A DNA stretch of 44,728 nt, counting the filler, from Jimgerdemannia flammicorona (Eukaryota): NCBI GenBank assembly GCA_003990765.1. It is 2 parts of 2 records of this genome, joined end to end, with 100 filler letters (N's around TTAATTAATTAA, not from the genome) between each part and the next. Parts side by side here need not be neighbours in the genome. Positions count along the whole stretch, not along the records: positions 22,416 to 44,728 come from RBNJ01001305.1; 1 more part is not named here. One strand, 5' to 3'. Below the pieces are notes generated by a model, which searched no databases, had not been told where the DNA came from, and saw only the letters and a list, made by a program, of their open reading frames with translations. The translations under genes and the position numbers were made by a program. Position 1 is the stretch's first letter; every line of letters begins with the position of its first letter. This document shows, one piece after another, positions 1-44,728 of this stretch.

Positions 1-288
1 TTCCAAGGCCCAAGCATCCGGGTTAGATCCCCCCAAGACCCCACATTTGTCCCCTATTTTGTGGAAGAGAACCTCATAGACTGGAGAGCTCCAGACCTTG
101 TTCCCGATTTCCCCGCCACACCCGAACGTGATGACGTCATCGATGACGTCATCCTGCGCAACATCGAGGCACGCGAAAATGACGAAGTATGCGAGACGTG
201 CGACCTACATGACGAATTCGCGGACCTCATCTCCTTCAGTGATGATGATGATGATGAAGCTCCCATGATCCTGAACTTTCTGCTCTAA
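1..288 (+). CDS. C-terminal part of the LTR-A-encoded ORF (acidic tail), open frame, 5' end outside window
   Basis: Frame 1 is open from base 1: FQGPSIRVRSPQDPTFVPYFVEENLIDWRAPDLVPDF...DLISFSDDDDDEAPMILNFLL*. It is the same frame and sequence as the end of the ORF at 27069-27909. Confidence 0.7.
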   Translation, partial: FQGPSIRVRSPQDPTFVPYFVEENLIDWRAPDLVPDFPATPERDDVIDDVILRNIEARENDEVCETCDLHDEFADLISFSDDDDDEAPMILNFLL

Positions 289-308
289 AAGTTCTTTGTT
301 ACATTAGA

Positions 309-460
309 TAATGCCAGCACCGGTATTCTCATGTAACACTGAATAATGCCAGCACCAGTATTCTCATGTAACACTGAATAATGCCAGCACCGGTATTCTG
401 AGGTGACACGAAATTGTTCCAGCACCGGTATTTTGATATGGTACTAAATAATGCTAGCTC
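309..460 (+). repeat. 35-bp tandem repeat (~4.4 copies) inside LTR A, between ORF stop and TATA box
   Basis: Unit TAATGCCAGCACCGGTATTCTCATGTAACACTGAA starts at 309, 344, 379, 414 and (partial) 449. Confidence 0.9.
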
Positions 461-533
461 TGGAACTCAGTAGTTTTAGTTATTGGAGTTTATATTTAGC
501 TTTATATCTTAGTAACCATTGAATTATATTTTG

Positions 534-543
534 TATAAATACC
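534..543 (+). promoter_or_regulatory. Putative LTR TATA box (TATAAATACC)
   Basis: The same TATAAATACC motif occurs at the equivalent position in LTR A copy 2 (26851-26860, minus), LTR B (41632-41641, minus) and LTR C (28572-28581, plus). Confidence 0.65.
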
Positions 544-774
544 TCCCTTATTTCCTCTGAAATAAAGTCAGTCAAGTTTCAGTTCACTTATACACACTTC
601 CTTGCAAGCAATCTAAGAGATAACAAGACAGTTAAAGATAAGAAGTTTGAGGACTATAAGACCTTGGGAAGGCACTCCAATAAGAACTTGCTTATAACAA
701 CTTGAGTTAGTCTAAGAGATATACCTTGAAGAGAATCTGGCATATTTGAAGGACTCAGCGACCACTATGTGATA

Positions 775-8758: not shown

Positions 8759-10054
8759 TGTAATAAAACAATACACTGATAGGATTAATATGTTGTAGAT
8801 AATCAAGATTGATTATCAGCCCTAAGTTCTGAGTTCTTGTGAGGAAGCACTGAGTTCCAATTGCCTGTCATGGCAGTGTAACCCAAGTATTGCTTTTGGG
8901 TTCTTGTGCTGGTGAAAGTTCTGTACTTGTATCCCAAGTTGATCAGGCTTGGAATTGTTAATAAGTCAGATCTGAGGGTTCTGTGATAAGAATACTGCTT
9001 TATTCTTATATTCAGAGAAAGTGGAGCTGAGGTTACAATATACTTAGTATAGAAAGTAATTATATAGATTTGATGCTATAACTAAATATAGAGTGCTGGA
9101 TATGTCTATATGTATTTATATATACTATATTCAGTATCTATGACTACTAGTTAGAAATTTCTATTGAAAATTCTAGTAACTTGTAGATATATAATGATTC
9201 ATTATATCCTTCCTTTCTTTATCTAAACCTATTTATTAGATTTAGTACTAAACTCTAGATACTTATCAACTAAAGTGCAGTATACTGGACTACTTGAAAT
9301 ATAATATTGCTCTATTTTTTATTACTCAAATTAGCAATATTCTCAGAGGATACTCTATAGAGATAGTCAAGGACTTGAGGTTGGGTGCAGAAAAGAACAT
9401 AGAGTCTCTTGGTAATAATATGGATATGGTTGTCAATGAAAAGACAGACTTATTGCTTGATACTACTGAGAGTAGCTTATTGATAGATAAGATATCTAAT
9501 CTTATAGTACTCTTTTAGTTTTTATTGATAATAGAAGGCTAATTCTTTCAAGATATTGTTAGACTTTATTTGAGTCTGGGTCTCCAGAGATTTGTATATT
9601 GATAGAGAGTAGTTTGATAGAATTTTATTAGTATTCAATAGTTATAAATAATCTTGTTCTTAGTTTGTTTTTAGTATCTTTACTAGGTACTCATATTGTA
9701 GTGGGTTTTTTGTATAGAATTTGTTTATATTATTTATACTTATCTTTATTAGAGATATTTAGAGATATATATAACTGTCTTTTGAAAATTCTATTGAAAT
9801 TTTCATTATATCAGATGTCTGTATTGAATTACTACTTCTTTTATATTAGGTAAAGATTATCTTCTTTTTTTCCAGATAGTATTGAATGAGCTTAAGCTCA
9901 TCTAAATTAGTAATCCTTATAATTCAGAATATAATTAACTTTGTATTTTAGTTTTTAATTAATAATAAAAGATGTTTTTAATATATAGCTAGAGTTGATA
10001 TATGTGAAATACTGGATATATTTTTTCTAGAGTTGCTGGAAGATCTAACTTATA
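8759..10054 (-). mobile_element. Solo LTR, family C (1296 bp), decayed
   Basis: Termini TGTAA...TTATA (=TTACA with C->T). Flanks TACAG (8754-8758) and TACAA (10055-10059) form a near-perfect 5-bp TSD. The left ~730 bp is homologous to the reverse complement of 28152-28875. Confidence 0.8.
9190..9760 (-). pseudogene. Decayed LTR-C-encoded ORF (ends approximate)
   Basis: From 9512 the minus frame reads EYYKIRYLIYQ*ATLSSIKQ*VCLFIDNHIHIITKRLYVLFCTQPQVLDYLYRVSSENIANLSN, which aligns with the LTR A and LTR B ORFs. Confidence 0.7.
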
Positions 10055-22198: not shown

Positions 22199-22315
22199 GG
22201 CCCTCAGGGGGGATAATGTCACAGTTTGGTAGCTAGAATCTGTGAGCAGAGTAGTGGGAGAGTGGGGATTGTGTTGGATAAAGTGGTCTTTCATCAGGAA
22301 GGGGTAGAGGGGGGG

Positions 22316-22415
22316 NNNNNNNNNNNNNNNNNNNNNNNNNNNNNNNNNNNNNNNNNNNNTTAATTAATTAANNNNNNNNNNNNNNNNNNNNNNNNNNNNN
22401 NNNNNNNNNNNNNNN
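22316..22415. other. Assembly gap / artificial contig linker
   Basis: 100 positions: N runs around TTAATTAATTAA (22360-22371), a six-frame stop linker. Confidence 0.95.
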
Positions 22416-24710
22416 CCAATGTCCAATGTCCCCAATGCCCCCATCCCTTTCTGAACAAGAATACACACTTTCCCCCTCCAAACTACTGTACCCCCCCATT
22501 CCTTAGTCCAATCCTATAAGTCCACATCTGCCTCATAATGAACAACCTGCAACAAAAAGTGATCTGCATCCAGGCCCTTAAGCCAACCAAATATATACTT
22601 CCTCCTAGCCACCCCCCATAGCCTATTAATGTTCAGTGAGAATATCCTAGTTGTACTGTTCATATTGAAGAAATGTTGCAACAAAGACCCCAATCTATAA
22701 TTCCATGCTCATCTCATCTCCTGCCAGATCTAAGCGCTGTTCAGCTTCCAAGTCACCCTCTGCAATATCCTGAGCATCCAGTGCCCCCAAGATTTCCTGA
22801 CATTTCACCCTATCCACTTCCTCCATATCTGCCTGGTAGTCCAAGCAGACTGCACGCCACTTCGCCAGTCCCTTTCTCAAGTTCCACAAGAAAAGTGCCC
22901 TGTCACTTGCAATCTTCCTAAGTTTCTCCTCCTGCTGACCATCAACCTGATATTCAATTGACTCCAGGAGGACAGCTAGGATCTCATTCCTTATCTTCCT
23001 TGGCACCTCCTCCCCCCATAGGATCTCCTCCCAGTGCCTCTCCTCTATCACCCAAAAGTCCTCACCACCTAGTTCTTCAGCCACTACCCCTTCCAGGGTC
23101 TTCCACATCCACTTCTCCTCATCCACTACCTCTGCCGCACCCTGAGCAATTCGTCCCCCATCTACCTCAGAGTCCACTAGCATGCTCCTCCTTACTGACT
23201 CATCCCACTCTTCATCTGGTACATCCATCAGCTCCTCCTCCCCCTCTGCTCCATCCGGAACACTATACTGAGGGCACACACCCTCACCCATTTTGGCATC
23301 TGCTTCCAAATTGCCCTCCCTCTCCTCCCCCACTCCAATCTGAGCCCCACTCTGAGCCATCTCTCCCCCCTCAGCCCAGGTGCTTTCCTGCAACCCTGCA
23401 ACTCCCTCCCCTGAGCTTCCACCAGCCCTACTCCCACTCAACTTCGCCAATAGCTCCTTCTGGATCTGCCTCCCCTGCATCTTCTCCCAGGCCCCCTTCT
23501 CCATCCGGACCCTCTTCCCATCTACCTCCCCCACTACTGTCCTGGCCTCAAACTCCTTCCAGGCTAATCTCCTCCTCACAACCACCCCTTTCAGATCCTC
23601 CAGAGCCTCCAACAGGTCCTCCTCCTCCTCTTGAGTCCCCTTCACCCTTGCGACCTTATACTCCACCGGTCCCCATCTCAACGTTGCTGGCCAGTCCCTC
23701 GACTTCCCCATATTCTCCTTCCCAGTCAGCCTCACCCTGACATCAACATCACTAGATCGAAGCTCCATTCCCTCTCAGACCTTGAACCCAACATTGACAA
23801 TCTTGCCATACTCCTGGATTGCCACCACAATCAACTCTCTGGTCCTCTCCTTCGATATGGTAGGGAGATCCAATACCATCAACTATACTACTCGCGGGTC
23901 CCAGTATATATACTGGGCCATAGGGACCATGACCCCACCAACCATCAACCCCTTCTCCATAGCTGCCAATAAGGTGTCTTCCTCCTCAAACCCCACCTCA
24001 ACCCCTTCCTTTCCCCTCAAAAACTTCACCAATGCTACTCCCTTAGCCTCCTGTGTCACTAGTCCCAAAATCATCCTTGCCATCACCACCAAGCCCCGGA
24101 AGTACATTGTGACCACGAATTCTGACCTCGACTTCTTGAGTAATGGGGCCGACACCATGCCTGTCACCCCATCTGCCAGGTCCCCAGGCCTCATGCCCAC
24201 ACCCAGTCCCAAATTGCCAACTGCCATTACATCTGGATTTTTTTGCCAGATCTCCAGTCACAGCCTCATCAACAGTCACATCTCCAGCCCCTACTCCTAC
24301 TCCTCCCCTGCTACCTGAGACTCCCCTGGGTGCACCTCCCTGTCCCCCAGCAGCAGCCATCAATGCCATCCCCAAGCCCAGCCAACCATCAAGGCCTGAG
24401 GCCATCTTGCTCATTCTGACCTTGTCAGCAAAGGTCAACCTCTCCCCTTCTCTCTGCCTCAGCCTGCCCCTCCCTCTACCACCAGGACCTCAGCTAGCCA
24501 TTGAGGCCCCCGGCATCCCCAAACCATCTCCCCTCCTCTCCACCTGCTGCCAGCCAAAGGCGCTGTCACCCCCCTGGCCAGTATGCTCACTAGTTCGATC
24601 ATTGCCATCCATATTGCTAGTCGCTAAATACCAAAAACATAGTAAAAAGTGTTGTCTGAGTCTTGTGTCACCCAAATGTTACCAGTGAAAGATCAACGAA
24701 CAGCGTGACC
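22416..24710 (-). mobile_element. 5' half of a young L1/Tx1-like LINE inserted into a Gypsy element; cut by the gap
   Basis: Closely colinear with ~38140-40425. ORF2 start MNSTTRIFSLNINRL at 22663. Confidence 0.92.
22695..24612 (-). pseudogene. LINE ORF1, best-preserved copy
   Basis: A 357-aa open stretch at 22695-23768 plus upstream pieces (23883-24227, 24043-24438). RRM-like VLDLPTISKERTRELIVVAIQEYGKIVNVGF. Confidence 0.8.
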
Positions 24711-26502
24711 TCTGTGTTTTCTTCATCTCCTTCCTCTATATCTGGTAAGACTCCTTTGTGGACATTGATAGAAACTCATACCTTTCTTCCTCTGTAGTTG
24801 ATCTGCATCTTCTGGGCATTGAGGTCAATGATGGCCTTGGCCTTGTGAAGCCATTGATTGCCAATGAGAATGTCATAGTTGGTGGTGCTTGTAATAATCA
24901 CATCTACTGGGATAGTAGCTCCTCCTATCTTGATGGGGACTTCTCAGATTTTGCCAAGATGGGTAGCTTGTGTACCATCTGCTGTAAATAGACCATCTTG
25001 GTGGACTCTTCAATGTCCCAACCTAGGCAGTCAATTGCCTTCTTGCTCATAAGGCATTCTCGAGCACCAGTATCAATGATGGCATCAAAGATACAGTCTT
25101 TGATCTGGCAGGGGGTATAGGCTGATATCTTGCACTGGTCTTCGGATTCTTCACCTGAGTTCTCAGATTCTTCTTGTGTATTGTGAGATTCTATAATCTT
25201 GTACTCTTGATTCTTGGCAGTAGTTGTAAGTCCTACTCTCAACTGCTGTCTAAAGGCAGGGACTTCAGCTAGCTGCCCAAAAGTAGCATTGACCTTCTGT
25301 TCCTTGAGGTCCTTGTAGATGTCATACTGGTGGATCTTGGTCTTGCACAGCTTCTGTTCCTTCTTGCTCTTGCTTTCTCCTGAGACTGGAGTAGTGCCTT
25401 CAATAATTTGGCAGACAGCTTCGTCTAACTCTATGTCTTGATCAATCTCCTTGGGTTAGGTCTTGCTTTGAATAGTGACAGCTGGAGTCTTCTTTGGTCT
25501 TCTAACTGGCTTGCTATTGCTCTTCTTGTCATAGGGCTTGGACTGGGTTCTGGTACCTTCAGTAGCAGGGTAGAATTTGAACTCCTCGTAGTATTCTTTG
25601 TCATCAGTATCACTGATCTCCTTGATGACTACTGCATTGGCTTGTTCTCTGGTTCTGCTAGCATTGCTTGGTTGGGCTTTGCATCTCATTTCGGTCATGC
25701 AACTCTTTGCATAGTGGCCTTCTTCTCAACATCTGAAGCATGTGATATTATGTTCTTCTGTAGCAGCTGCAAATCTCTGCACTGGTCTCCTGTTGGCACT
25801 TTGGACTTCTCTAACAACATCACTGAGATATGCAGTCATCTCAGCAAACTGCTTGACAAGTTCTTCCACTGGGTCAGCTTTGGCTGTCTTGGGGGTAGGT
25901 GGGGTTGGTTGTCTGTTTACAACTGTGGCAGGTAAGATACTAGTTGGCTTTGATAGCTCCATCTTGATGCCAGTTATTTTCTCTATTGAGTGTTCAGCAG
26001 AGTGTCTGGCAGTCTAATATCTCTGTACAAAGACCACTTTCTGATCAAGAGTCAGTGCAGCTGGGGTAGACTGGATTGCTAGGGCAATTTCAGGGTGAAC
26101 TCGTTTGAGGAAGATTGAATCTGCTATTTGTTCCTTGAGGCAGTCATCTGAGCCAGCTGAGACAATCTGGTGGCAGATTCGGGTATAGAATGAGTTGGGA
26201 TCTTCACTAAGTCCCTGGCAGATAGTATTGAGTTGATCCTTGAGAGCTTGCTTGATCTCTTTGGTATAATATGTTGTTCTGAGGATGACCTTCATGTTGG
26301 TAAGTTTGACTGCATCAGTACCAGCAATGGTGGCTGCATTAAACTTGTCTCTGGCAGGTCCTCTGAGACTGACTGGTAGAAGGGCCAATTGAGCATCTAC
26401 ACCTAGGGCTTGTATGGTGGCAAATTGTTCAAAGTCTTCAATGAAGGTCAGGATTGACTCTTCAGTAGTATATCCATAGAATGTGGGGGGATACATTTCC
26501 AT
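24711..26502 (-). pseudogene. Ty3/Gypsy gag-protease (truncated before RT)
   Basis: Gag MEMYPPTFYG...FIEDFEQFA...LRGPARD...ICQGLSEDPNSFYTRI; CCHC knuckle CFRC*EEGHYAKSC (~25700-25745); aspartic protease AIIDTGARECLMS (~25045-25085) with downstream YDILIGNQWL. Confidence 0.9.
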
Positions 26503-26602
26503 CTTATCTTGAATTCTTACAGGGATGACTCTTGTAGTCAGGGTAGTTGTTGTGGGGGTTATTCGTTTTTCAGCTTGAAAGTGAGGGATTCATCTTGAAT
26601 CA

Positions 26603-26622: not shown

Positions 26623-28151
26623 TGTCATGTAGTGGTCGCTGAGTCCTTCAAATATGCCAGATTCTCTTCAAGGTGTATCTCTTAGACTAACTCAAGTTGT
26701 TATAAGCAAGTTCTTATTGGAGTGCCTTCCTAAGGTCTTATAGTCCTCAAACTTCTTATCTTTTAACTGTCTTGTTATCTCTTAGATTGCTTGCAAGAAA
26801 GTGTGTATAAGTGAAACTGGAACTGACTTTATTTTAGAGGAAATAAGAGGGGTATTTATACAAAATATAATTCAATGGTTGCTAAGATATAAAGCTAAAT
26901 ATAAATTTCAATAACTAAAACTACTAAGTTCCAGGGCTAGCATTATTTAGCATCACATCAAAATGCTGGTGCTGGAATAATTTCACATCACCTCAGAATA
27001 CTGGTGCTGGCATTATCCAGTATTATATGAGAATACTAGTGCTGGCATTATCCAGTGTAATACAGAACTCAAAGCAGAAAGTTAAGGACTATGGGAGCTT
27101 CATCCTCATCATCATCATCACTGAAGGAGATGAGATCCACAAATTTGTCATGCAGGTCATGTGTTTTGTGTCCGTCGCATGCTTTGGGTATGTCATGTGG
27201 GATGATGTCATCACCAATAACGTCATCACATTTGGCTGTGGTAGGAAAATCAGGAACAAGATCTGGAGCTCTCTAGTCTATGAGGTTCTCTTCCACAAAG
27301 TAGGAAACAAATGTGGGGTCTTGGGGAGGTCTAACCTGGATGCTTGGACCTTGGAATACTGAGATCAATCCTTGCAGGAATTAGTCTGGGTTGTCCTGAA
27401 GGATAGGGTACCAGAAGTCTTCTACTTCTTCACTGTTGAGGGTGATAGTAGACCAAGCTTCTGTAGCCACTCTGGCTTCTAGTACATTGATATGGCAGGA
27501 TGATAGATCTCTGAAGTCTGAGACTCTAACATACTCCAAGTTGGGGATCGACCATGGTACATGCCTGAAGATCTGATGGATCTTCTTAGCTGTCCTTGTT
27601 TCGCGTATATATATCCATGAGAGTGGCATCTTGTAGCTCTTGGGTACTGGCTTGTAGGAACTCTCAGTAGAGGAGGTTTCCTATTTCATACTCCTGCCAC
27701 ATTTGGAGGTATTTGGTAGCAATAGTGATCCTTGTTTCCATTTCACAGCAGTAGAGAATGAAGTGATAAGGGTCTGCAGTATCCAGGTTAACACTAGGAG
27801 TCCTTCTTGAGCAGGTCCTCATGACTCTTCTGATGTCTTGGAACATCCTTTCCTTGACCGAGATACCTTGGTGATTCCTTGATCTTGAGGTTTGGTGGGC
27901 AGCAGGCATTTCATTTGTAGTAAGTCTTTGAGCTATTTTGGGATTGGTGGTTCTTGTTAGTTGCTACTACTGTAATTCCTTGATCCTTCTTTTATATTCT
28001 TCAGGATGCTTGTGCTGTGGTCACAATGACTCACAGTTGGTCATCATTGCTCATCTCATATGCTGTATGATCTTCTTGTGTTCCGATCTGGTGGCTTGTA
28101 AGGAAAGACTGTCTCCAGTGCTGATGTCATCATTCTGAAGTCACTATTATA
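26623..28151 (-). mobile_element. 5' LTR (family A, ~1529 bp) of the Gypsy element
   Basis: Starts TATAATAGTG (TG->TA decayed) exactly where LTR C homology is interrupted and ends CACTACATGACA, followed by PBS and gag. No polypurine tract or internal boundary seen between the ORF and the LTR end. Confidence 0.82.
27069..27909 (-). pseudogene. LTR-A-encoded ORF (~280 aa), unknown function
   Basis: Runs from ATG 27909 to TGA 27069. Lesions: TGA 27664-27666, a frameshift in the TA run near 27606-27614, TAA 27381-27383 and TAG 27273-27275 (TGG in the copy at 1-288). Confidence 0.8.
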
Positions 28152-28875
28152 CTATCAATAAGCAACTCTTAGCAAAGCTAAGCAACTGTTCAATCTATTT
28201 ATTAACAACTATATTTATATCATTGCAAAAAGGTTATATATTCTTTTTTGTACTCAACCTTAAGTTCTTAATCACCTCTATAGAGTATCTCCTGAGAATA
28301 TTATTAATTTGACTAATAAATACTAGAGTATCACTACTTTTCAAGAAGTTCAATATACAGCCCTCTAGTTTGATGAGTATCTAGAATTCAGTATTAACTT
28401 TAATGAGTAGATTCTGATAAAAAAGAAAAAGATATAATTGTTTATTATATATTAATAAGCCACTGAAATTTCTAATAGAAATTTTAATAAGTAGTTATAA
28501 GTACTATATAATATAACTATATATATATAAATATATCCAATATACTGTATTTAGTCATAACTTGGAATCTGTATAAATACCCTCTATAGTGAGTGAGTTA
28601 TAACCTCAGCTCTACTTTTTTCAATATAAGAATAAGGTAATATTCTTATCAAAGAACTCTCAGATCTGATATATTAATAATTCAAAGCCTGATCAACTTA
28701 GAATATAAATATAGTGCCTTTATTAGTATAAAAACCTAAAAGCAATACTTGGACTATACTACTGCAACAAATAATTGGAACTTAGTGCTTTCTTACAAGA
28801 ACTCAGAACTTAGGGCTAATAGTTATCTTGATTATCTACAATGTATTAATTCTATTAGTATATAGTTTTATTATA
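28152..28875 (+). mobile_element. 3' part of a family C LTR, interrupted by the Gypsy/LTR A insertion
   Basis: Reverse-complement match to 8759-9487. The frame from 28153 reads YQ*ATLSKAKQLFNLFINNYIYIIAKRLYILFCTQP*VLNHLYRVSPENIINLTN. TATAAATACC at 28572; ends TTATTATA. Confidence 0.85.
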
Positions 28876-30026: not shown

Positions 30027-30052
30027 ATATATATATATATATATATATATAT
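30027..30052. repeat. (TA)n microsatellite at the 3' end of the old LINE
   Basis: Direct reading. Confidence 0.9.
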
Positions 30053-30749: not shown

Positions 30750-31347
30750 TAGTGCTCCTAATAAGTCAATTTAATCTAGATTAGATTCAGATTGATTTGA
30801 ATCAACTATTGTTTTGATTTTCAAATTAGACAATTAAATATTTACATCAATAACTCAATGAATAATTATATAATTTTGATGATCTTGGTGTCATTTGAAG
30901 CCCTTAATAAGGCCTATCTAATGATACTAAGAATATTGAAATCAGATCATATATTGCTGAGTTATAAAGGAAAACATCTGAATTACTAATTTTGGAAATT
31001 ATTTGATTTGTTGATTTTGGAAATTTCATCAAATAGATCATTTTTCTTAATATCTTAGCAATGTATAATCCTATTTTAATATTCTTGGTATTATTAGAAA
31101 GGCCTTATTAAGGGCTTTCATATAATACCAAGATCATCAAATATGGATGATTATTTATCGAGTTATTGATATAAATATTTAATTGTCTAATTTGAAAATC
31201 AAAACAATAGTTGATTCGAATCCATCTGGATGGGATTCAAATCCCATTCAAGTTGATCCAGATGGGATTTGAATCCCATCCAAGTTGATCCAGATGAGAT
31301 TCAAATTCCATCTGAATTCTATTCAGATTGACTCATTTAGAGCACTA
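30750..31347. mobile_element. Non-autonomous hAT-type MITE (598 bp), largely palindromic
   Basis: Termini TAGTGCTC...GAGCACTA; 8-bp TSD CATCTGCC (30742-30749) / TATCTGCC (31348-31355); long inverted arms ~30790-30990 vs ~31030-31230. Confidence 0.88.
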
Positions 31348-34300
31348 TATCTGCCAACCAACTAGCCATCTCTCAAGAGGCCATATCCTAGCTCATTTTA
31401 TTGCCTCTACTAAGAAATACTCCTCCAATGATCTATCACTCACCCTGAGTAAATCCAGTCTCCATCACTACTGCTCAGAGTTGACAACCTCCCCAACATC
31501 AGGCCCAGGTATTCTATGGCCAGTCAGACCTCCACAATACTCTACCAGAATCCTTTATTTCACAATCTGTTAACCCTCTCCACTTAGAGCAGTCTTCTCA
31601 TATTTTTCCACTCCTCACCCCTGGGGCAGAATCTGATCTCTCAATTTTCCATCACTAGCCTACCCTATCCTCCCTTACTCAGTTCTATAAGGTGATATCC
31701 TCACCAGCTCTGAAGTGTCTTCAACTATTGCCAAAAGTCCACCAGCCCCAGGCCTCTATTAGTCATCTGTAGAATCAATGACTCTTAGTTAATCTATAGT
31801 TACCTCTTTTGCCACAGCTACTCTTTAACAGCCTTCTTCAACCACTGTACCACCCACTTAGGGAAGTCTAAGTAATATCTCAGATACTACAACTTATGCA
31901 ACCAATATACATTTAAAACCACTACTTGGCCCACCAGAGAGAAATTCCACCCAGATCAGTCTGTCAGTATACTCTTCTATTTCTGTATCATCTCTTATCA
32001 CCACTCTCTTAGCAGAACTGTTTCATATACTGAGAACTAAATTCCAAGATACTAAACAGTCTCTCCAGCAAGCATAACTTACTCAAACCCACTCTCTACC
32101 TCTAAACTAGTACTAAGCTCCAGAGTCTCACATTTTCTTCAGTTCAACTTTACCTCAGCCAACCTCTCATAATGTTCAATTCCTTTCTACAAAATGTCCA
32201 CATCCTCAGTACAACTTAGCCCAACTATTATATTATCTGCAAATGCCCCCAACTTCCAAACCACCTCACCCAAATACAATCTAGTTAGCTGTCTCTTTAG
32301 TTAGGCCAATACCAGTTTCAAGAAAAGAATATAAAAGAGGAGAGAGAGCAGATCTCTCTGTAAAACTCCTCTACCTAAGACAAACTCCAGACCATATCAA
32401 TCATTCATCAGAACTGCTACCTGATAGCCATATACCAAACCCATAAGCCTTTCAATCTCCCCTGCACTGAACCCAGCTTTTCTCAATATAATTTCCAGAT
32501 AATTCTACTATACTCTATCATACACCTTCTCTTGATCCAAGAAGACCATTCTCTCATTAACCTGATAACTCCTACAGTATTCTAAGATATTTTGCATCTA
32601 GGCAGTATTATCATTGATCTGCTGCTCCTTCACAAATTCTCTCTACTCCTCATCTACCAGCCTGCCAATTTATTGCTATATTCTCTCTACCAAGATCTTT
32701 GAGATCAATTCTCTATCCACATTTAATAACATAATTAGCTACTAGTTCTGCTATATCCTCCTATCACTCTTTTCCTTATATAATAAAGATACTAATTATA
32801 AATCACCATTTCCAATCCATCTATCTCCTTTCAGTATACAATTCACTATCTCAATAAGCCAAGCACTAAATTAAGTATAGAATTTCTTCCAAAACTCCCA
32901 AGGCAGCCCATCTTCTCTAGGTGAAAAACTACCCAGCACCTCCTACAGAACTCTCAATATCTCTTCCAGAGATACTCTGCTCATTACAGCAGTACTCATC
33001 TCTGGCAGTGCTACTACTGGCCAGCTCTATACCAAAGAGACAATCCTAACATCTAATACACCATTCTCTCCATCCTCACTATTATCACTCAGAGAGCCTA
33101 TCACTATCTAGAGATCTTCTTAAGTATATCAGCAATGCCAAAGACCTCAACCCCATTCTTTTATAAGACCAACACTTAGCTATACTATACCCTCCTGGCC
33201 TTTAAGATATCAGAAAGATACTTAGTTGGCTGCTCTCCTTTCTCTAACTGCCAGGTCAATAGTTGAGCCAGTAGGTCATTTATTACTCTATTCTCTACCT
33301 CTCTCATATCTGACCATAATTCTATTATCTCCTTAATGAGCTGATGATGAATCTCTCTTGTCAGTATCTCTTTCAACAATTGCAACTACCACTGCAGACT
33401 CTTATCAATCCTCCTCTCCTTGTCCTTCTGCTCCTTTCCAGCCACCTTCCCAATATCCCACTAAGAGACATCTGTTAAGTACTTAAATCTATCCCACTAC
33501 TCTACAACTAATAGCCCTCCATTCTTTTATTATACTACTTCTCTCTTGGCCAAGATCACAAAGTGTTCTCTCTCTATCTACCATCTGAGCAAGACTATAT
33601 AAGGTACCAGTACTCTCTCTCACCTCTTATAGTCTGAAATCTTCCTCACATCTCTACTTTCCAATGATCCTACCATGGGCACCAATATACTTCTACAATG
33701 TTCAATACATTACTCCAATGTTCTGCTACTAGCATCCAGTCAATTCTTGTTCTCACTAGCTCATTACTAACTTAGTACTATCTGGTAAAGGGCTCTGACC
33801 TATCTCCTACTTACAACTGTATACCATCCACCAGCCTCAAACCTTTCTCTGTCTGAAGCCACTGAGAAAGTCTCTGAGAGACAGCTGCATTAGCTCCATC
33901 ATCAGACCTATTTAGTATATGATTATATATTATATTAAAGTCTTCTTCCAAAATGTCCAACCCAATAGCCTCCCAATTTTTCTATACTTACTACTCCTCA
34001 ATCTATTGCTTTTGCTCTCTGCCAACTACTAGTAAGTATGCAGAGTCCACCAATAGTCCATTATCTGCTCCTTTCTTCAATCTACTCCAAACTAGCTAAT
34101 TACTATATATGTTCACATCCACCAGCTCACCCTTGCCAACTCTAACTAGAATACCAACTTACTTATTCCAACCAGTACAACCAAACCATTTCTCACTCCA
34201 CTCCTCATAGTCAATTATATTATAAGCTCAAACATTCTGAAGAAGTGCTACATTATATCTTCTGACCTTCAGCTATCAAAATAAATACCACTGCTTAACC

Positions 34301-34879
34301 CTATCTCTCAGACTACTAATATTGAGTAATAAAATATATAAACTGTTTATCATCAAGAGACAAGTATTTATAAAACTACTGCTACTGTCACTATCTTCTC
34401 AGCCCTGCTCTTGATGATGTTCTGATGTTCTTTACAGTCTACACTCTAGATGCACTCTCAATTCTCACTACTACAAAAAAGGTCCACCTGCTCTGATACT
34501 ACCTTTTGAATATCTATTATTCTGCTATTATCAATCTTATATCTCTCATTCTCTAAGAGGGCAGCTACCATTGCTATTATCAGTTTTGACCTCTGTATCA
34601 CCATATTGAGAAACTCTTCTCAAGCCTCCTGAGATCAATAAAACACATCTACTTTTTTTTTTTTTTTTTTTTATAGTCACTTGGACTGCCCTTTATTACT
34701 GAAGTCTATAGTTCTAACAATACAATGTCACCCCCACCCTCAACCAATGCCCCATAGACCCCACCCTCCCCTCTCGACCTCCCCCTGCCTGAGCACTACC
34801 CAATTACCCACTACTCAAATCCTCCCACCACTCTTATGGGAGATACACTGCACTAAACCCCTGCAGTACCCCCCACCCA

Positions 34880-37800
34880 GTCCCCAACCCCGCCACCAGC
34901 TATTCAAAATGTCCAATAGCAACCATTCCCATCATGCCACCTTGTCCCCAACCCCAACCTGATGCCCTTCCTCAAAAACATAAACCCAATACCCAGCCAA
35001 CCCAACCCACATAGCCAAAGCCCAACCAAGGGTCAGCCATTTGTCTCCAACCCCACCCACCAGTCACTGGCAGAGCTCTCCCTATCTCCCCCCACCCTCT
35101 CCCTCTAAGGCACCCTGCCCTACCCAGTCTATAATACATCTCCAAAACTCCTCTAAAACCTCACACTCACTAAGCCAATGTTCAGGCGTTTGTACCACTC
35201 CTCCCTCCTGGCCAATGTTGAAACAATCCTCACACTCAAATACTCCACCATCTACCAAGTGTCCAGACTGATAGTTCAACATCACATTCCACCATAGGAC
35301 ATGCCACCACACCACCCAGAACTTGGGGGGCAGCCACTGCCTCACCCTTTTGCTCCAAAGCCAGAGTCCATGCCAATCCCACTCCTCACCAATTCCAACC
35401 CTCTGCCAGGCTTCAGGCCACAGGTCTCCACCTAGGTCTCACAGATACTCCAGACCCTCACCAAGCTGAAAGTTCTCCACCAGAACACCACCCAGTAGAA
35501 GCCTGTCTCACCGCCACATCCATGGTCCCCAATCCTCCTTGGCTTCATCACCTTGCCACCGAAGCCCAATTTTCTTAGCGCCATCCACCACCTCTCACCA
35601 GAAGCCTGTAAACTGCATCCTCCTGCTCCCCTCCATGGCCACCATCATGAGCAGGTCACCTGAGTCATCATGTGGGGAGTACCGAACCTCCCACAACCTC
35701 TGCATGAGTGGCACCCACTCCCGACCCTGAAGCTCACTCACCTGCTACAACCACCAAGCTCTCAGACATATAAGCCACTTAGTAAAGTCCACTAAGCCCA
35801 GCCCACCTCTTTCCAAGAGCAGTGTGAGCACCTCCCAATCAACCTGGCTTCACCGCCCTCACCAGATCCATGACCTCGCCATCCTCAACAACCCCTTGAC
35901 CACCTAGGTTGGGAAATCCAAATGATATCCCACATACCACAGCTTCGGCATCTAATACACATTCAGCACCATCACCCTACTGGCTAGGGACATATGCTGG
36001 CCTCTATATTACAGCAGAACATTTCCCACTCCAGAAGCTAATGGTCCCACCATGCCTGGGGAAGAAGAGACCCAAATACCGAGAAGTAGATCTCCAAATA
36101 TTGTACTGGTTCACCAGCTGGTACCACTGTCCCAATGACATCACCCCCAACAATTCCAGCACCTAGCACCAGAGTCTCACATTTGTGCCAGTTTAGTTTA
36201 GCACCAGAACCCCTCTCATACCAGTCCACAGACCTCTGTAACTCCCCCACATCCACCAAGGAGCCCAGCTCGACCACCATATCATCAGCAAAGGCCCCCA
36301 CCTTCCAATTAATCCCTAAAATGTCCAAACCCCCAATCTGCTGCTGAAGTCTGTCCAGTAGAGGCTCCAGGGAAAGGGCATACAATATGGGCAATAATGG
36401 GTCCCCTTGTGGTACCCCATGTCCCAGGGGAAACATCTCCCCCCTGTGGCCATTGATGACCAATGCTGCCTGACTGTCCTCCAGGAGGCCAATTAATGAT
36501 CCTCGAAACCCTGGGGGAATACCGATTTATTTCAACACTCCCTCCAGCCATATCCTCTACACTCTATCATAGGCCTTCTCTTGTTCCAGAAATACCAATC
36601 TGCCATCCATCTCTATTGCCCGGATACCTTCAATCACTCCATGAACCCAAGCTGTTCTATCTCAAATCAACCAACTATCAACAAACCCATGCTGCTCCAC
36701 ACCAAGCACCTGCTGAGTGATTCCTTGCAGCCTCATCACTAAGATCTTTGTCACCAGTTTGCGGTCCATGTTGAGAAGCATAATTGGCTGCCAGTTCTTC
36801 CAGTCCTCTTGCCTCCTCTTATTCTTGTAGAGGCCCCAAGCTCTGTCCCCCAATCCAAGCACCAGACCGAAGAACTCCATCACACATAGCAGTCATTTCC
36901 TCTAGCACCTTGCCCACCCCAGCCATCTTCTGCCAAAAATCCCAGGGAAGTCCATCCTCTCCTGGGGCTGTCCCCTTACACATTGCAGCCACAACTCTGC
37001 AAATTTCCTCACCACTCACCAGATCCTCCAATGCCCTAAGTCTCATTGTAGGGTCTGGGTACCAATCCCCCAGCTGTCTTTCAACATCCAGAGCATCCAT
37101 TCCGCCTTTCTCCTCACTCCATAGATTCTCCCACCAGATTCTCAATAGGCCCAGAATCACCAGAGTCCCCACCACCAGCTCGCTGTTCTCATCCAGAACT
37201 CCCTCCCACTGCTGTTTTGTTTGTCATGCTTATAACAACCACATCAAAAACCTAGTAGGCCTCTCCCCCTCCTCAAGCCCCTGCCACCGCAGTCAGACCA
37301 CCATGCCCTATATCTTCACCTCTTCCTTTCTTTGCAACACTCCTTTAAGCTCCTCTACCTCCTGCCAGATTCTCACAATACACCAATCCATCAAGTCCCC
37401 ATCGTCCTGCACATCTGTCCATCTCTCCATGAGTGCAGCCAGATGCTGCGAGGCCCACAACATCCTCTGCCTTCACTGAGCATACTTTCCTTTCCCTGCC
37501 TCCCTCCAATACCCCTGAGCATTTGCCTTCAATCATCACCAGTGGTCCTCAATCCCAAGGCCTTGTTCCCACCACCTACTAATATTTCCCACCACCTCCT
37601 TTTCCCAACCCTTCCACAACATCCTGTCCTCTAACAAGGAAGAATTTAGCTGCCAATGTCCAGACCCATCCTCATTTCCCCCAAACCTCTCCCCTCCAAG
37701 CAGTCCCCAGTGATCAGACCATGGACACCATACTACTTCCAGTGCCAACCAGACATCTGCTCCCCAACACTCAGCCATCAGAACCCAGTCAATCCTGGAG

Positions 37801-38390
37801 CCCAGCCCTGCCACCCAGTGGGTGTATGCCCACCATTTGGCCCAAAAATGTCTTCCCGAGTCCACTAAAGCACACAATCTCTCTGTCTCTATCCAGTCCC
37901 CCAACCCACCACTTTCGCTCCGCATGCCTCTCCCTCCATCTGTTCTATCCATCTCCTTATCCCATATCATATTGAAGTCACCCCCCATACAGTCCAGCCC
38001 AACTTCCCCCAATACACCAGCCTCTTTCAATCCGTGAATCCAATCCACCCTCTCCCCTCTCTCAGCTGGGCAGTAACAAGACCCAACTGTCAACAAGCCC
38101 CAACCAGGCCTCCTCCACCTACCCCATACCACCCAAGACCCCCAATGTCCAACGTCCTCAATGTCCCCCATCCCTTTTCGAATGAGAATACACACTTTCC
38201 CCCTCTATACTGCTGCACCCCCCCATTCCTTAGTCCAATCCTGTAAGTCCACATCTGCCTCATAACGAACATCCTGTAACAAGAAGAGGTCCACATCCAG
38301 TCCCTTAAGCTATCCAAAAATATACTTCCTCCTAGCTGCCCCCTGTAGCCCATTAACATTCAACGAGAATATCTTAGTTGTACTGTTCAT
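34880..38390 (-). pseudogene. LINE ORF2 (APE + RT + CCHC); 3' end approximate
   Basis: LFLLQDVR, MGGDFN, SRIDWVL, WSDHW, APGEDGLP, VPQGDPLLPILY, AFADD, CEDC..EHWLSEC. Confidence 0.9.
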
Positions 38391-38421
38391 ATTGAAAAAA
38401 TGTTGCAATAGAGACCCCAGC

Positions 38422-40349
38422 CTAGAATTCTATGCTCATCTCATCCCCAGTCAGATCCAAGCACTGTTCAGCTTCCAAGTCACCCTCCACATTAGCCTGA
38501 GCATCCAGTGCCTCCAAGATTTCCTGGCATTCCACCCCATCCACTATCTCTATATCCAACCAGTAGTCCAAGCAGACTGCATGCCACTTCTCCAGTCCTT
38601 TTCTTGCATTCCACAAGAAAGTTGCCCTATCACTCGCAATCTTCCTAAGTTCCTCCTCCCACTGATCATCAACTTAATATTTAACCAACTCCAGGAGGAC
38701 AGCTAGGATCTCATTCCTCATCTTCCTTGGCACCTCCTCTCCCTGAAGGATCTCCTCCCAGTACCTCTCTTCCATCACTCTGAAGTCCTCACCCCCCAGT
38801 TCTTCTACCACAACCCCTTCCAGGGTCTTCCACATCCACTTCTCCTCATCTACAGCCTCCACTACACTCTGAGCAATTTGTCCCCCATTTACCTCAGGTT
38901 CCACCAGCATGCTCCTCCTCACTAACTCATCCCATTTCTCATCTGGCACATCCAGCAGCTCCTCCTCTCCCTCAGCTCCACCCGGGACACTATACTGAGG
39001 GTACACACCCTCACCCATTTTGGCATCTGCCTCCAAATCACCTTCCCTTTCCACCCCCACTCCAATCTGCATCTCACCCTGGGCCATTTCTCCCCCCTCA
39101 GCCCAGGTGCTCTCCTACAACCCTGCAACTCCCTCTCCTGAGCTACCACCAGCCCCACCCCCACCCAACTTCGCCAGCAGCTCCTTCTGGATTCTCCTCC
39201 CCTGCAACTTCTCCCAGGCCCCCTTCTCCATCTAGACCCTCTTCCCATCCACCTTCCCCACCACCATCCTGGCATCAAACTCCTTCCAGGCCAATCTCCT
39301 CCTTGCAACCATCCCTTCCAGATCCTCCAGTGCCTCCAATAGGTCCTCCTCCTCCTCCTGGGTCCCCTTCACCCTTGTGACCTTACACTCCACCTGTCCC
39401 CACCTCAGTGCCACTGGCCAGTCCCTTGACTTCCTCATATTCTCCTTCTCAGCCAGCCTCACTCTGATATTGACATCACCAGTCCTAAGCTCCATGCTCT
39501 CCCAGACCTTGAACCCAACATCTACAATCTCTCCATACTCCTTGATCACCTCCACAACCAACTCCCTGGTCCTCTCCTTTGACACAGTAGGGAGATCCAA
39601 TACTGTCAACTATACCACTCAGGGGTCCCAGCACATGCACCAGGCCATAGGGACCACAACCCTGCCAACCATCACCCCCTTCTCCATGGCTGTCAACAAG
39701 GCATCTTTCTCCTCAAATCCCACCTTGACCCCTTCCTTTCCCCTCAAAAACTTCACTGATGCAGCTCCCTTAGCCTCCTGTGCCACCAGCCCCAAAATCA
39801 TCCTTGCTGTTACTGCCAAGCCCTGGAAGCACATCATGACCACGAATTCTGACCTCGACTTCTTGAGTAATGGGGCCGACACTATGCCTGTCACTCTATC
39901 TGCCAGGTCCCTGGACCTCATGCCCACTCCTAGTCCTGAATTGTCAACTGCCGTCACATCTGGATTTTTGGCCAGATCTCCAGTCACAGTCTCATCAATA
40001 GTCACATCTCTAGCCCCTACTCCTGCTCCTCCCCTGCCACCTGAGACTCCCCTGGATATACCTCCCTGTCCTCCAGCAGCAGCCATCGATGCCTTCCCCA
40101 GCCCAGCCAACCATCTAGGCCCAAGGCCATCTTCTCCATTTGGACCTTGTCAGTGAAGGTCGACCTCTCCCCACCTCTCTGCCTCAGCCTGCCCCTCCCT
40201 CTACCACCAGGACCTTAGCTAGCCATCAAGGCCCCCAGCATCTCCAAACCATCTCCACTCCTCCCTACCTACTGCCAGCCAAAGGTGCCAGCACCCCCCT
40301 AGCCAGTATGCTCACCAGTTTGATCATTGCCATCTATGTTGATAGTCAT
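38422..40349 (-). pseudogene. LINE ORF1
   Basis: ORF-track pieces 39619-40110, 39232-39609, 38674-39087 and 38422-38616 are closely similar to the 22695-24612 copy. Confidence 0.8.
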
Positions 40350-41154
40350 TGAACACTGAAAACATAGTGAAAAGTATTGTCTAAGTCTTGTATCACCCAA
40401 ATGTTACCAGTGAAAAATGATCGAACACATCCACTTCCTTGATATACTTCTCTACAAACTCCTCAAGTATTGCCTAGAACTAGCTATCAGCTATAATTGC
40501 CATTGGTAGGCCTAGAGGTTCTGCTCAACTCCTGTAGCAATTCTCTATTTATAGAAACATCAGAGGTGACCTCTACTAATTCATTCTCCTTAGAGACCTT
40601 TTTCAGCTATACCACCTTGCTAGCCTCAGGATATTCCCAGTAAATATTCACAGCCCTAACTATATGAGCATCCTCTACTGATGTCTCAGAGACCATCTCA
40701 ATGACCTCCTCAAAACCCCCCTCTCTTACCTCCTCCTTATCAGTCTACTTTCTCTTCACTAATATATATAAAGAGTCACCTATACCCCCTAGCTGCAAGA
40801 AGGACACCTCAGCTACCTCTACTCCTTTCATTCTATTCTAGTCAATTTCAGCCCTTATGGCCTCCTCCTCAGCAGACCCCTACAACACAGCCTGCAAATG
40901 CTCCTAATTCTCCTTAAGCCACTATCTCCTCTTCCTATCTGCCTAAATCCAGACCCAGTCTATCATGAACTCTTTCTACTTTCTTTTTTGCAAAGCCTTC
41001 ACCTTCTCTCTCTCCTCTAGAGTAATTAGCAACTCTTCTTCTTTCTGTTTGAATACTTTCCTCCTCCTGATTCAGTACTTCTGCTCTTTAACTTAAATAA
41101 TCTCTAGTCAGTCCTATTCTACCCTATCACCTCCTTCTTTTCTAACTATACCAT

Positions 41155-43222
41155 TATAAGGGGGTTACTTTTTGGGGTAACTATTATGTAGTTCTAGAAA
41201 GGTTTTCTGGATATTCTGGGTATTCTGGAAGACCATTTTCTTATGGTCAAGATCAATTTCGTATAGAGTACATCCTCTACACTTATTGATTTCAAGATCA
41301 GGTTGATGTCTTAACCAAAGTCCTTTTTTGGACTAGTTCTGGATGTTCAGGATTTTCCGTATTTCAGGAAGTTCAAGAAACTAAGACCAGCTTAGTTGAA
41401 TTGGTGTATCGCTGCAGACAATACTCAATTAGGAAATTTCGTGATGGAGTTAGGAGTAGGACCTAACAGGAAGCAGATTTACTTAAGAGTGGTTTGTGGG
41501 TTATGGAATAGGTTTATTTGCTATTCATGATATTGCTATACTAGGAGTATTTGTATGAAGGGGTATTGTGGGGAAGTATTCAGGAATGTTCTTGTGTGTT
41601 TGAGTCTGAGATTCTGAGGTCTGGGGGAGGGGGTATTTATACTAGTGAGGGGCTATCTGGACTATGCTAGATATGGATGTAGCACTAAGTGCTTTTCTGA
41701 GTCAGAATGCAGTCACATAGTACAAGTGTGATCTGACATGTCAAGAGATCGTCTGACTGCTGAGTCAGTTCACAGTCACATTGTACAATGCTAATCGAAC
41801 TATACTATGACTGCTAGGCTATTTATGGGATTAGGCACTGTCTGGATAGTCTTCGATGACATCACCATCAATTGCATCATCTCTGATGAAGTAGTCATCT
41901 AGGAAGAGTGGTTCGCAGATTACTTCTCCTTGTTCACTGAGGTAATACATAGTACATTGGAACTTTGTCTCCGTCCCACAGGATAGCATCATCTGTCTCG
42001 TATGCTGGGTAAGGTGTTGGTGGGTAAAGGATGGGTGTATTGTCTTCACTTTCGTCAGATTCACTGTCTGCATACCTTCTATAGGTTATGGCACTATGAG
42101 TTGCAGGATTGTAGTAAGCTGGTGGCTGTGGTTCATATCGCTCATACTCAGGTAGTGGAGTGGTTGATTCAATCTCGAGGGTTGTCTGGAGGTACAGGTT
42201 GTATTCTCCGGTTTCTTCATTGTAGTTAAAGTAAACAGGAGTGAATACGGGTTGGTATTTGTGCCAGTGGTCATTGTCCCAGTAAGCCTCATATATAGTT
42301 ATGAACTGTTGTAAGTTCATTGGCAAGGTTGGCGGAGTGATCAGGGTTGGCAGAGATCCTTGGCTAGAGGTCATGTCAGCATCAGAGGGATCATTATCTT
42401 CTGCTTCATCTTCAACAAAGTGGATTATATCATAGATGTCCTTCATGGCATATCCAACTTGAGGCATTTGCAGGATGTGATCATTGGGGTATGGGAAGGT
42501 TCTGTCTGTGGTCTCGATGTACTTGAGGTACTTGTGGTTGAGTTCTTGTATTATGTCATCGATTTGGCCATAGGACAGAGTAGTAACCATTTCAGCTGTG
42601 GTAACTCGGAGGCGGGGAATAAAGGTACTATACTCATAGAAGAGTTCTCAATGTTTGCGGGTGATGAGCTTCTGGTGTTGAGACATCTGGGTAATGTCTG
42701 TATCATGGTGGTGTTCGACCATGTCTTCCAGGAGGTGGCCAATCTGGTAGTAGCTTGAGATTTGTCTGATTCGGTAGGCCTTGCTAAGCATGTTCAGAGC
42801 ATTCCATCAGGCTTCCACGAAGTAGAGTGGTACCAGGCTATGGATATTCATGAGGGGCAGAGGGGGTGTGGCTCAGTTGACCATGGCATTCCAAATGTCA
42901 GCATGGATACAGTTGTAGATCTCTGTGGTCATGTTTGTGTATTTGGAAGTTGTGGTTGTTTGTTTGTTTTTGGTTTTCTGATTTGATGTGTCTCAGTACT
43001 CGGTATATATGCATTTAGTCCTGATTGGTAAGATTCTGTTTGTGTAAATCTTGTGTTCCGTGACTTCGTATTGACTCAGCTTTGTGCACTGTGACTTTGG
43101 TTTGACTCAGCTTTGTGATCAAGCAGGTGATTTCCAGATCTGTTTGGAGGTCGCATGTGATTTCAGTGGCTTGTTCAGAGGGTGATATATAATTTCAGTG
43201 GCCTGGAGGTTGTGCACTTACA
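41155..43222 (-). mobile_element. Solo LTR, family B (2068 bp)
   Basis: Termini TATAAG (=TGTAAG) ... CTTACA; perfect 5-bp TSD ACCAT at 41150-41154 and 43223-43227. No gag or pol inside. TATAAATACC on the minus strand at 41632-41641. Confidence 0.9.
41831..42932 (-). pseudogene. LTR-B-encoded ORF (~364 aa when repaired), unknown function
   Basis: ATG at 42932. One frame with three TGA codons (42873, 42807, 42648; consistent with CGA->TGA) joins the 218-aa ORF 41934-42590. A 7-bp near-duplication ATGTACT/ATGTATT (41957-41944) shifts to the frame ending at 41831. Confidence 0.85.
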
Positions 43223-44728
43223 ACCATTGTCTCATAATTGCCATTTCTCAGCTTTATGCTCTTCTAGAATATGAAATCAAAATCCACCATCTTATCAGAA
43301 TCTTCCAGAGCCTTAGTCATCTCCTACCTGCTCAGTGTCAGTAACTCTTCAACGACCAGATGCATCACACATAGGTCCTACCTCAAGTATCTTGCAATCT
43401 CCACCTTGACATTCCTGACCATCACCCCTTTCTTCAGAACTTTCACTATTACATCCTTCTCAACAAAACCAATCTCAACTATCTCTACTAATAGAATAAA
43501 TCTCAATAACTATATCTCAGCAATTTTCTCATTCACTTATCTCAGAACTTCTCTGGCTGACAGCTCTAGCTCCAGGAAGTTGGCAGAAATTATCTATGTT
43601 AATACTAACTTATAAAAGAATAGATATACTACCAGTTTTCTAGTTCTAGCTATCAAAGTCATCCTGCTCTTATCTTCTAAAACTCTAGCTACTACCTCTT
43701 TAGCTATCACTACTCTACCAGCAGTCATACTACTAGCCACCAACTCAGCCCTAGGAAAACCAGTCTCAGCAGTCCTACTACCAGACCTCTGACCCTTGAT
43801 AGGCATCTGATCAGTCATCTGACTCATTACCTAACTCTCTCTCCTATTAATACTATATCTCTCCAACACTCCAACTATAGGCCTAGAGACTGCTCTTCTG
43901 TTCTCTACTATAGTATATCAGCCATTTACTTCAGTAGCTCATCTCTGATTACTAGTTCTTTTTACTACATCTCCAGCTCCAGCAGTAGTAGTAAAAATCT
44001 TAAAAAGGTTCAGACCAGGCTTCCTTCTCTCTAAGCACTCAGAGCCCAAGAAACTTTAGCTTTTCATAGTACTAAAACTTGACAAATTTCAATAAAACTT
44101 ATTATATATTTTAGCTAGACTTCTACTATATCTAGTATATTAGTATAAGTAAAGTAAAAACTTGAAAATATATTTTTTTTGCAAAAAGATATCTGAGTAG
44201 CTTAGCTTACTTTAAGTAGTTTGAGCAAAAGAAGTCTCTACATACTATAAATACTCCACTATACTATATAGATATAATAAGGTACTTAGTATACATTTTA
44301 AGACCAAGAGCTAGTGATATAGTATTCTATATTCTGAGAGTATATATAGTTTCAGATCTGTTTGCTTTGAGAATATATCTAGTGCTAACTATTTGGCTAA
44401 TTAGGAGATAATTGCTGTAATCAAAGAGGCTGTTAATATGGGTTAGTTTAGTAAAATGAGGTGGCTGTTATATAAATATCTCTCTGATTTGATAAAATAA
44501 AGTATAGAGTTAATCTTGGCAATATATATCAGAAGTATAAATATATATTTTGACTTATTAGAGTTTAGCTAAGCCACCTATATTTAATGATAAGAATAAT
44601 AATTAATATATAAAAGTATATACTCATCTCTTTCTCTACTATTATATCAGTTACAAGATTTTGGTAGACAATCTTCCAAGTTCCTTTTTTATAACTTTTA
44701 CTAAGTAAGTTTACTATACCTATTTTTT

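Follow-up and report, generated by a model that had tools for sequence, protein, structure and literature searches.

A probable solo long terminal repeat with a decayed sense gene in its putative U3 region in Jimgerdemannia flammicorona

The DNA analysed here, referred to throughout as the window, is a stretch of 44,728 nucleotides from Jimgerdemannia flammicorona (GenBank assembly GCA_003990765.1) that joins parts of two records through 100 filler letters. Near its right end, in the part taken from RBNJ01001305.1 (positions 22,416 to 44,728), lies an insert that carries a decayed open reading frame (ORF) and that we read as a solo long terminal repeat (LTR) of a retrotransposon, flanked by a target site duplication (TSD). 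An initial annotation of the same DNA had described it as a solo LTR acting as a self-contained gene cassette. The features of the insert are given below; U3, R and U5 denote the three successive LTR regions (unique 3′, repeated and unique 5′).

41155..43222, minus strand as sense strand: the insert, read as a solo LTR, delimited by TSD, terminal inverted repeat and a flip in GC skew, and without terminal direct repeats
41150..41154, no strand: left TSD copy ACCAT (5 bp), by direct reading
43223..43227, no strand: right TSD copy ACCAT
43051..43112, minus strand: two tandem 31-nt motif copies, each with TGAGTCA, about 40 bp upstream of the TATA-like box of the ORF
43003..43009, minus strand: TATATAC, a TATA-like box and putative promoter of the ORF, 77 nt upstream of its ATG
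41831..42932, minus strand: decayed ORF of about 366 codons, with ATG at 42932, three TGA codons, a frameshift and TAA at 41833-41831
41697..41788, minus strand: two further TGAGTCA motif copies of 29 nt, spaced 63 nt apart and in the opposite orientation to the upstream pair
41630..41642, minus strand: GTATAAATACCCC, the sole canonical TATA box in the insert and putative genomic-RNA promoter at the U3/R border
41513..41518, minus strand: AATAAA, the sole one in the insert and putative R/U5 polyadenylation signal

Direct reading of positions 41000-43400 bore out the size and boundaries first proposed, i.e., a length of 2068 bp with a perfect 5-bp ACCAT duplication adjoining both sides. The insert runs from TATAAG to CTTACA on the plus strand and from TGTAAG to CTTATA on the minus strand, so that its termini form a 6-bp inverted repeat in which 5 of 6 positions are complementary. 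A fine composition profile gave a GC skew of -0.60 at 40850-41149, of +0.18 to +0.49 within the insert and of -0.56 at 43250-43549; since the skew flips at both junctions, the insert interrupts a compositionally uniform, C-rich repeat. This surrounding repeat is a minus-strand element resembling long interspersed nuclear elements (LINEs), with a reverse transcriptase (RT) at 36038-36526 and a weak match to an endonuclease family at 37308-38204 (E 0.0079, below the Pfam cut-off).

As the initial annotation had stated, gag and pol are missing: no Pfam family of either was found in a 464-aa reading of the insert (E ≤ 0.01). A repeat search within the insert found no direct repeat linking its two ends; the only repeats are motifs of 14-31 nt, and those close to opposite ends are mutually inverted. 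This excludes a small deletion derivative of LTR-ORF-LTR structure, and the insert does not class as a terminal-repeat retrotransposon in miniature (TRIM) or a large retrotransposon derivative (LARD), which have two repeats around a non-coding core. Because only 6-bp inverted ends are present and no transposase domain was found, it does not class as a DNA transposon with terminal inverted repeats either. What the insert has are short inverted-repeat ends starting with TG, a TSD within the range of 4-6 bp, no gag or pol, and a TATA box followed by a polyadenylation signal, the hallmarks of a solo LTR. An extra internal ORF would lie between LTRs; here the unit has its own TSD and termini and no repeats flank the ORF.

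Searches of the rest of the window found neither a further copy of the insert (blastn, tblastx) nor a paralogous empty site for the insertion point, and scans of metagenome, viral and genome contigs gave no confirmed relative of the insert in outside DNA; the viral scan included the gag of a second retrotransposon of the window, element B, introduced below. None of the 20 sequencing runs listed holds half of the sampled words, and the best share, 0.23, says nothing on habitat or expression. There was no RNA run among the runs listed as sharing sampled words.

Comparison with its relatives shows that the insert ORF derives from a real gene and has decayed. The frame that starts with ATG at 42932 contains three in-frame stops, all TGA (first bases 42875, 42809 and 42650), and terminates at TGA 41936-41934; the true C-terminus lies in another frame past a frameshift near 41949-41957 and ends with TAA at 41833-41831, which gives a span of 1102 nt. 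A full HMMER pass over 1.84 billion representatives yielded three proteins at E ≤ 0.001, two of which are real relatives (E ≤ 1e-10), namely the metagenome proteins P0001 (E 1e-85) and P0002 (E 1e-64), and a word-indexed search of 5.8 billion proteins returned P0001 from the near length range and P0002 from the shorter range. The third protein, P0003 (E 1e-4), is repetitive, aligns over a stretch of 37 residues and was discounted as a chance or low-complexity match. P0002 (128 aa) covers the N-terminus of the ORF at 85% identity, and P0001 (247 aa) covers the rest at 65% identity, including the out-of-frame C-terminus, where it aligns to a different frame of the window ending at TAA 41833-41831. 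A repairable ORF of about 364 aa had been proposed at 42932-41831, and it stands at about 366 codons, with relatives that span it, frameshifted C-terminus included. A tblastn search of P0001 and P0002 against the rest of the window found nothing (best E 0.77), and for the stretch upstream of ATG 42932 the protein searches found no relative.

P0002 has arginine at all three in-frame TGA positions, which points to CpG decay, not to an altered genetic code. Moreover, for 9 of the 19 differences from P0002 over 128 residues, one CpG transition in a codon for the residue of P0002 would suffice as an explanation. Within the insert the observed/expected ratio of CpG is 0.32, and between 10 and 44 kb of the window it lies at 0 to 0.21. 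An arbuscular mycorrhizal fungus is known to methylate CpG in its transposons (PMC8647823), and by analogy such methylation would fit the CpG decay seen here. The copy of the gene in the insert is dead, with three stops and one frameshift, and is no expressible cassette today; for this copy, the potentially expressible cassette of the initial annotation had to be given up.

On the strand of the ORF, TATAAATA occurs just once in the insert (41641, inside GTATAAATACCCC), and so does AATAAA (41518); both follow the ORF stop, and AATAAA lies 123 nt past the TATA box. The ORF ends about 190 bp before this LTR TATA box. As the order of ORF, TATA and AATAAA matches the end of U3, R and U5, the ORF would lie wholly within U3; the position of the ORF upstream of the TATA box, as proposed earlier, is confirmed, and the U3 assignment stays putative. 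Four TGASTCA sites, against about 0.25 expected by chance in 2 kb (simple arithmetic), lie inside four copies of a motif of about 30 nt, two ahead of each TATA, the inverted pair being situated 55-150 bp upstream of the LTR TATA box. From this we infer that the insert holds two promoter-like units of one design, one ahead of the gene and one at the expected start of the genomic RNA.

The same layout recurs in a second family of LTR retrotransposon in the window, element B, which has its own decayed ORF (termed ORFx) and two partial copies (A and C) elsewhere in the window:

26623..28873, minus strand: LTR-like block of element B; copy C defines where it starts (TGTAAT) and copy A where it ends (ATGACA)
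27072..27909, minus strand: ORFx, a decayed ORF of about 280 codons in the block, with four intact relatives
24617..26505, minus strand: gag, CCHC zinc knuckle and aspartic protease, which follow the block immediately in element B
1..774, plus strand: copy A, a B-type LTR of which the 3′ part is present, its ORFx C-terminus (1-288) being intact and rich in CpG
8759..9490, plus strand: copy C, a B-type block of which the 5′ part is present, starting with TGTAAT (76% identity)

On the minus strand, element B encodes gag (26505-26014), a CCHC knuckle (within 26013-25456) and an aspartic protease (25455-24617), which identify it as a truncated LTR retrotransposon; it is cut off near 24670 by a LINE-like fragment. 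The block of about 2.25 kb has different flanks in each of element B, copy A and copy C, and its termini TGTAAT and ATGACA form an inverted repeat matching at 5 of 6 positions. Copy A stops at the same terminus and is followed by AT-rich DNA outside transposable elements, without gag. In element B, a stretch starting with TGG, a candidate primer binding site (PBS), begins 3 nt past the terminus, with the ATG of gag about 120 nt further; no tRNA gene and no Rfam family were found in the window to match it. ORFx is preceded, in the orientation of the block, by TGAGTCA (28033) and TATAAAA (27996, 87 nt before its ATG at 27909) and followed by the identical 13-mer GTATAAATACCCC at 26861-26849, a place equivalent to that of 41630-41642 in the insert. 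Element B has the layout of the insert, with gag attached as it would be to a 5′ LTR. By analogy only, element B would speak against short LTRs with an internal ORF, the arrangement that the initial annotation had named as contrary to its claim.

The B-type copies have some peculiarities of their own. Both copies that contain the interval from the stop of ORFx to the LTR TATA box have there about 3.6 tandem copies of a 35-bp unit (297-471 and 26926-27069), at the place that the inverted TGAGTCA motif pair occupies in the insert at 41155-43222. Copy C is followed by a stretch of about 770 bp (9496-10268, plus strand) that ends in a run of 26 A, with AAGATAT at 9489-9495 and again just past the A run; it looks like a poly(A) retroposon inserted into the LTR copy. 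Beyond this insertion no continuation of copy C was found, the score being no better than that of shuffles.

ORFx has four intact relatives in metagenome protein sets (P0019-P0022, 215-271 aa), which are 67-80% identical. CpG decay separates its copies in the window, with 19 CpG per 288 nt in copy A vs 3 in element B. If only non-CpG differences are counted, the 69 well-aligned codons of copies A and B differ by 8 synonymous and 6 nonsynonymous changes over about 44 and 157 sites, respectively, an approximately five-fold synonymous excess per site that is based on small numbers. This pattern of non-CpG change in the aligned codons may be taken as a sign of purifying selection on ORFx.

The proteins of the two ORF families have a similar general character: a first half that is predicted to be helical and is neutral to basic, and a C-terminal half that is rich in aromatic residues and strongly acidic, with a net charge near the C-terminus of -9 to -10 per 30 residues. 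Pfam searches found no transposase or integrase match for the insert ORF and, for either family, no homologue among known accessory proteins such as Sag and Nef, and the Atlas gave no usable match for protein function. Our guess, made with low confidence, is that the product of the insert ORF would be a trans-acting factor of the element, most likely an acidic transcriptional activator; it is prompted by the acidic tail and by the motif common to both promoter-like units.

Taken together, the insert is probably the solo LTR, in minus sense, of an LTR retrotransposon that carries a complete accessory gene in a long U3. The parts of the initial claim that stand are the termini, the TSD, the size, the missing gag and pol, and a real sense ORF ahead of the TATA and polyadenylation signals; what falls is the functional state of the cassette, the copy here being dead. 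We envisage that an LTR element integrated into the C-rich LINE-like repeat, making the ACCAT duplication, and that its internal part was presumably lost afterwards through recombination between the two LTRs. The unit left behind would read, from 5′ to 3′, TGTAAG end, two TGAGTCA-bearing 31-nt motifs, TATA-like box, ORF of about 366 codons, two inverted motif copies, GTATAAATACCCC as the genomic-RNA promoter, R with AATAAA, U5 and CTTATA end. A gene in U3 would be copied by reverse transcription to both ends of each new insertion and kept upon solo-LTR formation; duplication in each cycle and retention in solo LTRs are logical consequences of its position. Its protein, if made from its own promoter, might act on the motif ahead of both TATA boxes.

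A much bolder extension of this reading, which we hold to be doubtful, is that a clade of LTR retrotransposons, probably mucoromycote, has a complete, self-promoted U3 gene that makes each LTR, solo LTRs among them, an autonomous transcription unit, with an acidic, transactivator-like product that binds the TGAGTCA motif of about 30 nt; the window of about 45 kb would then contain two very divergent versions of the layout. Such a system might be a retrotransposon counterpart, by analogy, of the foamy-virus circuit of Tas and an internal promoter, and solo LTRs could then form a dispersed reservoir of the factor; this too is speculative.

Several observations weigh against the reading of the insert as a solo LTR with a U3 gene. 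The 3′ dinucleotide of the insert on the minus strand is TA, where CA is canonical. No element with the 2-kb insert sequence at both ends was seen in the window or in the scans of outside contigs, and since element B lacks its 3′ half, the block is not demonstrated at both ends even for element B. Copy C matches element B over 28873-28147 and ends 14 nt before an upstream ATG of element B, so that 28873-28147 could be a shorter unit of its own, distinct from the remaining block. The promoter, R and U5 assignments of the insert are putative and follow from consensus motifs only. As to the gene itself, no second DNA copy of the insert ORF for an estimate of selection was found in the window or in outside contigs. 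The open frame of 247 codons that persists in P0001 at only 65% identity is suggestive, but the intact relatives are an ascertained sample, since only open frames get called as proteins. For ORFx, the raw Nei-Gojobori ratio of nonsynonymous to synonymous rates (dN/dS) between copies A and B, 0.24 over 88 codons, was set aside because CpG decay inflates synonymous change.

Sequence homology between the insert and element B is not established by the comparisons made: hhalign aligned residues 6-108 of one ORF family with 19-123 of the other (P 0.0074, probability 5%), which is suggestive only; the score of the ORFx profile (hmmsearch) was reached by 3 of 1000 shuffles for P0002 and by 41 of 1000 for P0001; and the reverse profile direction gave 106 and 200 of 1000 shuffles and, in one comparison, no score at all. 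The non-coding flank DNA of the insert and element B was not above shuffles, 28 and 107 of 500 of which reached the real score. Nor is there help from annotation or structure, with no Pfam family for P0001, P0002 and P0019-P0021 at E ≤ 5, no significant sequence match in the PDB (best E 0.37 for one ORF family, none for the other), and AlphaFold2 models of the two families with a mean predicted local distance difference test score (pLDDT) of 34.3 and 36.2.

Among the other explanations, it is unlikely, though the chance is not negligible, that the insert is a solo LTR whose ORF is a passive passenger, i.e., a captured orphan or host-derived frame, functionless and never expressed from the LTR, with boxes that arose by chance or serve the genomic RNA only. 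A dead ORF copy, the failure to find a family, fold or function for it (Pfam, Atlas, PDB, AlphaFold2) and a mere two relatives in very large protein collections are what a passenger would lead one to expect. A passenger agrees poorly with a P0001 that is still open over 247 codons after diverging to 65% identity, with an ORFx at the same place in the element B block that has four intact relatives and a synonymous excess, and with the same 30-nt motif pair ahead of both TATA boxes. Slightly less likely still is an internal ORF, in which case the true LTRs would be short, the insert a rearranged or internally deleted element and, in element B, 28873-28147 the LTR and ORFx a first ORF upstream of gag like ORF1 of Ogre elements. 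The match of copy C to element B at 28873-28147 only, stopping just short of the ORFx region without continuing after the poly(A) insertion, agrees with such an arrangement, and Ty3/gypsy elements are known to carry their extra ORFs internally (PMC6431247). The insert, however, has no direct repeats at its two ends and yet a perfect TSD; in element B neither a CA terminus nor a stretch starting with TGG follows 28147, ATGACA and then TGG being found at 26623; copy A ends exactly at the 26623-type terminus with no gag after it; and the common TATA 13-mer is located between ORF and gag, where the genomic-RNA promoter is expected.

Retroviral-type DDE integrases of DNA elements also produce TG...CA ends and 5-bp duplications, and an insert with a single ORF and no retrotransposon domain found might accordingly be a small DNA transposon or integrase-mobilised cassette with TG..CA-type ends and the ORF as its cargo. 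We regard this as improbable: the terminal inverted repeat is only 6 bp long with 5 of 6 positions matching, the ORF gave no match to a transposase or integrase, and the succession of TATA and AATAAA, together with the parallel in element B, where the block is joined to gag and protease, fits an LTR. That the host reads TGA as an amino acid and that the gene is intact was refuted. The 464 codons of the minus-strand frame 43217-41823 do include 11 TGA, with TAA and TAG both absent, as TGA read as sense would predict. Against this, P0002 has arginine, not tryptophan or cysteine, at all three positions, CpG is strongly depleted, and a frameshift is present; the run of TGA at the 3′ end is noise in the wrong frame beyond that frameshift, the true C-terminus ends in TAA, and the part of the frame upstream of the ATG has no relative.

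The window also contains LINE-like elements, at about 11000-22400 (plus strand), 22438-24670 (minus strand) and about 30000-41150 continued at 43223-44150 (minus strand), with an endonuclease domain at 18598-19338 and RT domains at 19644-20777 and 36038-36526. These elements show an extreme strand bias (absolute GC skew of about 0.3-0.5) and almost no CpG (0 in 12001-16000 vs about 50 expected), and their ORFs, in which TGA codons occur in frame, have a very high content of Trp, Gly and Glu. Only positions 2000-8000 have a normal CpG content (observed/expected about 1.0). Minus-strand ORF pieces at 2973-3359, 3377-3616 and 4386-4610 in this part probably belong to an intron-containing host gene; they match no Pfam family, and the nearest Atlas cluster to the ORF at 2973-3359 (score 0.95) is from Mucoromycota. 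Nested inverted repeats occupy 30785-31312 (30785-30899 with 31117-31231, and 30898-30974 with 31041-31117) and are followed by tandem copies of a 32-nt unit with a short internal palindrome, with no tRNA or Rfam match. An array of 23/46-bp tandem repeats is found at 1520-1693, in the AT-rich DNA downstream of LTR copy A.

Solo LTRs are usually regarded as gene-less regulatory relics. If the reading of the insert as a solo LTR with a U3 gene is true, the copy number of the gene would scale as twice the number of elements plus all solo LTRs, and a trans-acting factor could persist after its parent elements are gone and either serve related copies or repress them. LTRs could then also be the carriers of many orphan 'hypothetical proteins' of repeat-rich genomes. 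The layout of a few retroviruses (sag, nef, tas/bet) would also be extended to env-less retrotransposons of a non-animal host, which would bear on the origin of accessory genes.

Among known LTR retrotransposons, Ogre elements have LTRs of 1.9-6.5 kb and one or two extra ORFs, and captured ORFs are placed downstream of pol, according to a review (PMC6431247). In PMC6431247, PMC5408684 and PMC8278194, the extra ORFs described lie in the internal regions of LTR retrotransposons. ORF1 of Ogre, the additional ORFs (aORFs) of plant elements and the captured ORFs of bdelloid rotifers resemble the insert ORF in being orphan ORFs of long-LTR retrotransposons (PMC6431247, PMC5408684). In contrast to the extra ORFs of Ty3/gypsy elements, the insert ORF lies inside a TSD-bounded unit without an internal region. 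A limited literature search, which is no proof of absence, returned work on the 'LTR ORF' of mouse mammary tumour virus and, for LTR retrotransposons, no protein gene described as lying entirely within an LTR.

The closest parallels come from retroviruses. In mouse mammary tumour virus (MMTV), sag (the 'LTR ORF') is an ORF of a few hundred codons within U3, in sense orientation and thus in both LTRs, as is proposed for the insert. The insert differs from it in that its ORF stops about 190 bp short of the TATA box and is equipped with a TATA-like box and a motif pair of its own; there is no sequence relation, no Pfam family having been found for either ORF family of the window, and here the host is probably fungal and the retrotransposon env-less. 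Foamy virus Tas/Bet and nef of the human and simian immunodeficiency viruses (HIV/SIV) are accessory genes at the 3′ end that reach into U3, and the foamy virus transactivator, expressed from a second promoter that lies internally, acts on both. The same logic is proposed for the two predicted motif-plus-TATA units of the insert; unlike the insert ORF, however, tas/bet and nef overlap U3 only partly and would not be complete in a solo LTR, and no homology to them was found. Cassandra TRIM elements have a 5S RNA gene in each LTR and thereby resemble the layout proposed for the insert, an independently transcribed gene that is embedded in the LTR and duplicated along with it, the difference being that Cassandra carries an RNA gene transcribed by RNA polymerase III and the insert a protein gene with predicted signals for RNA polymerase II.

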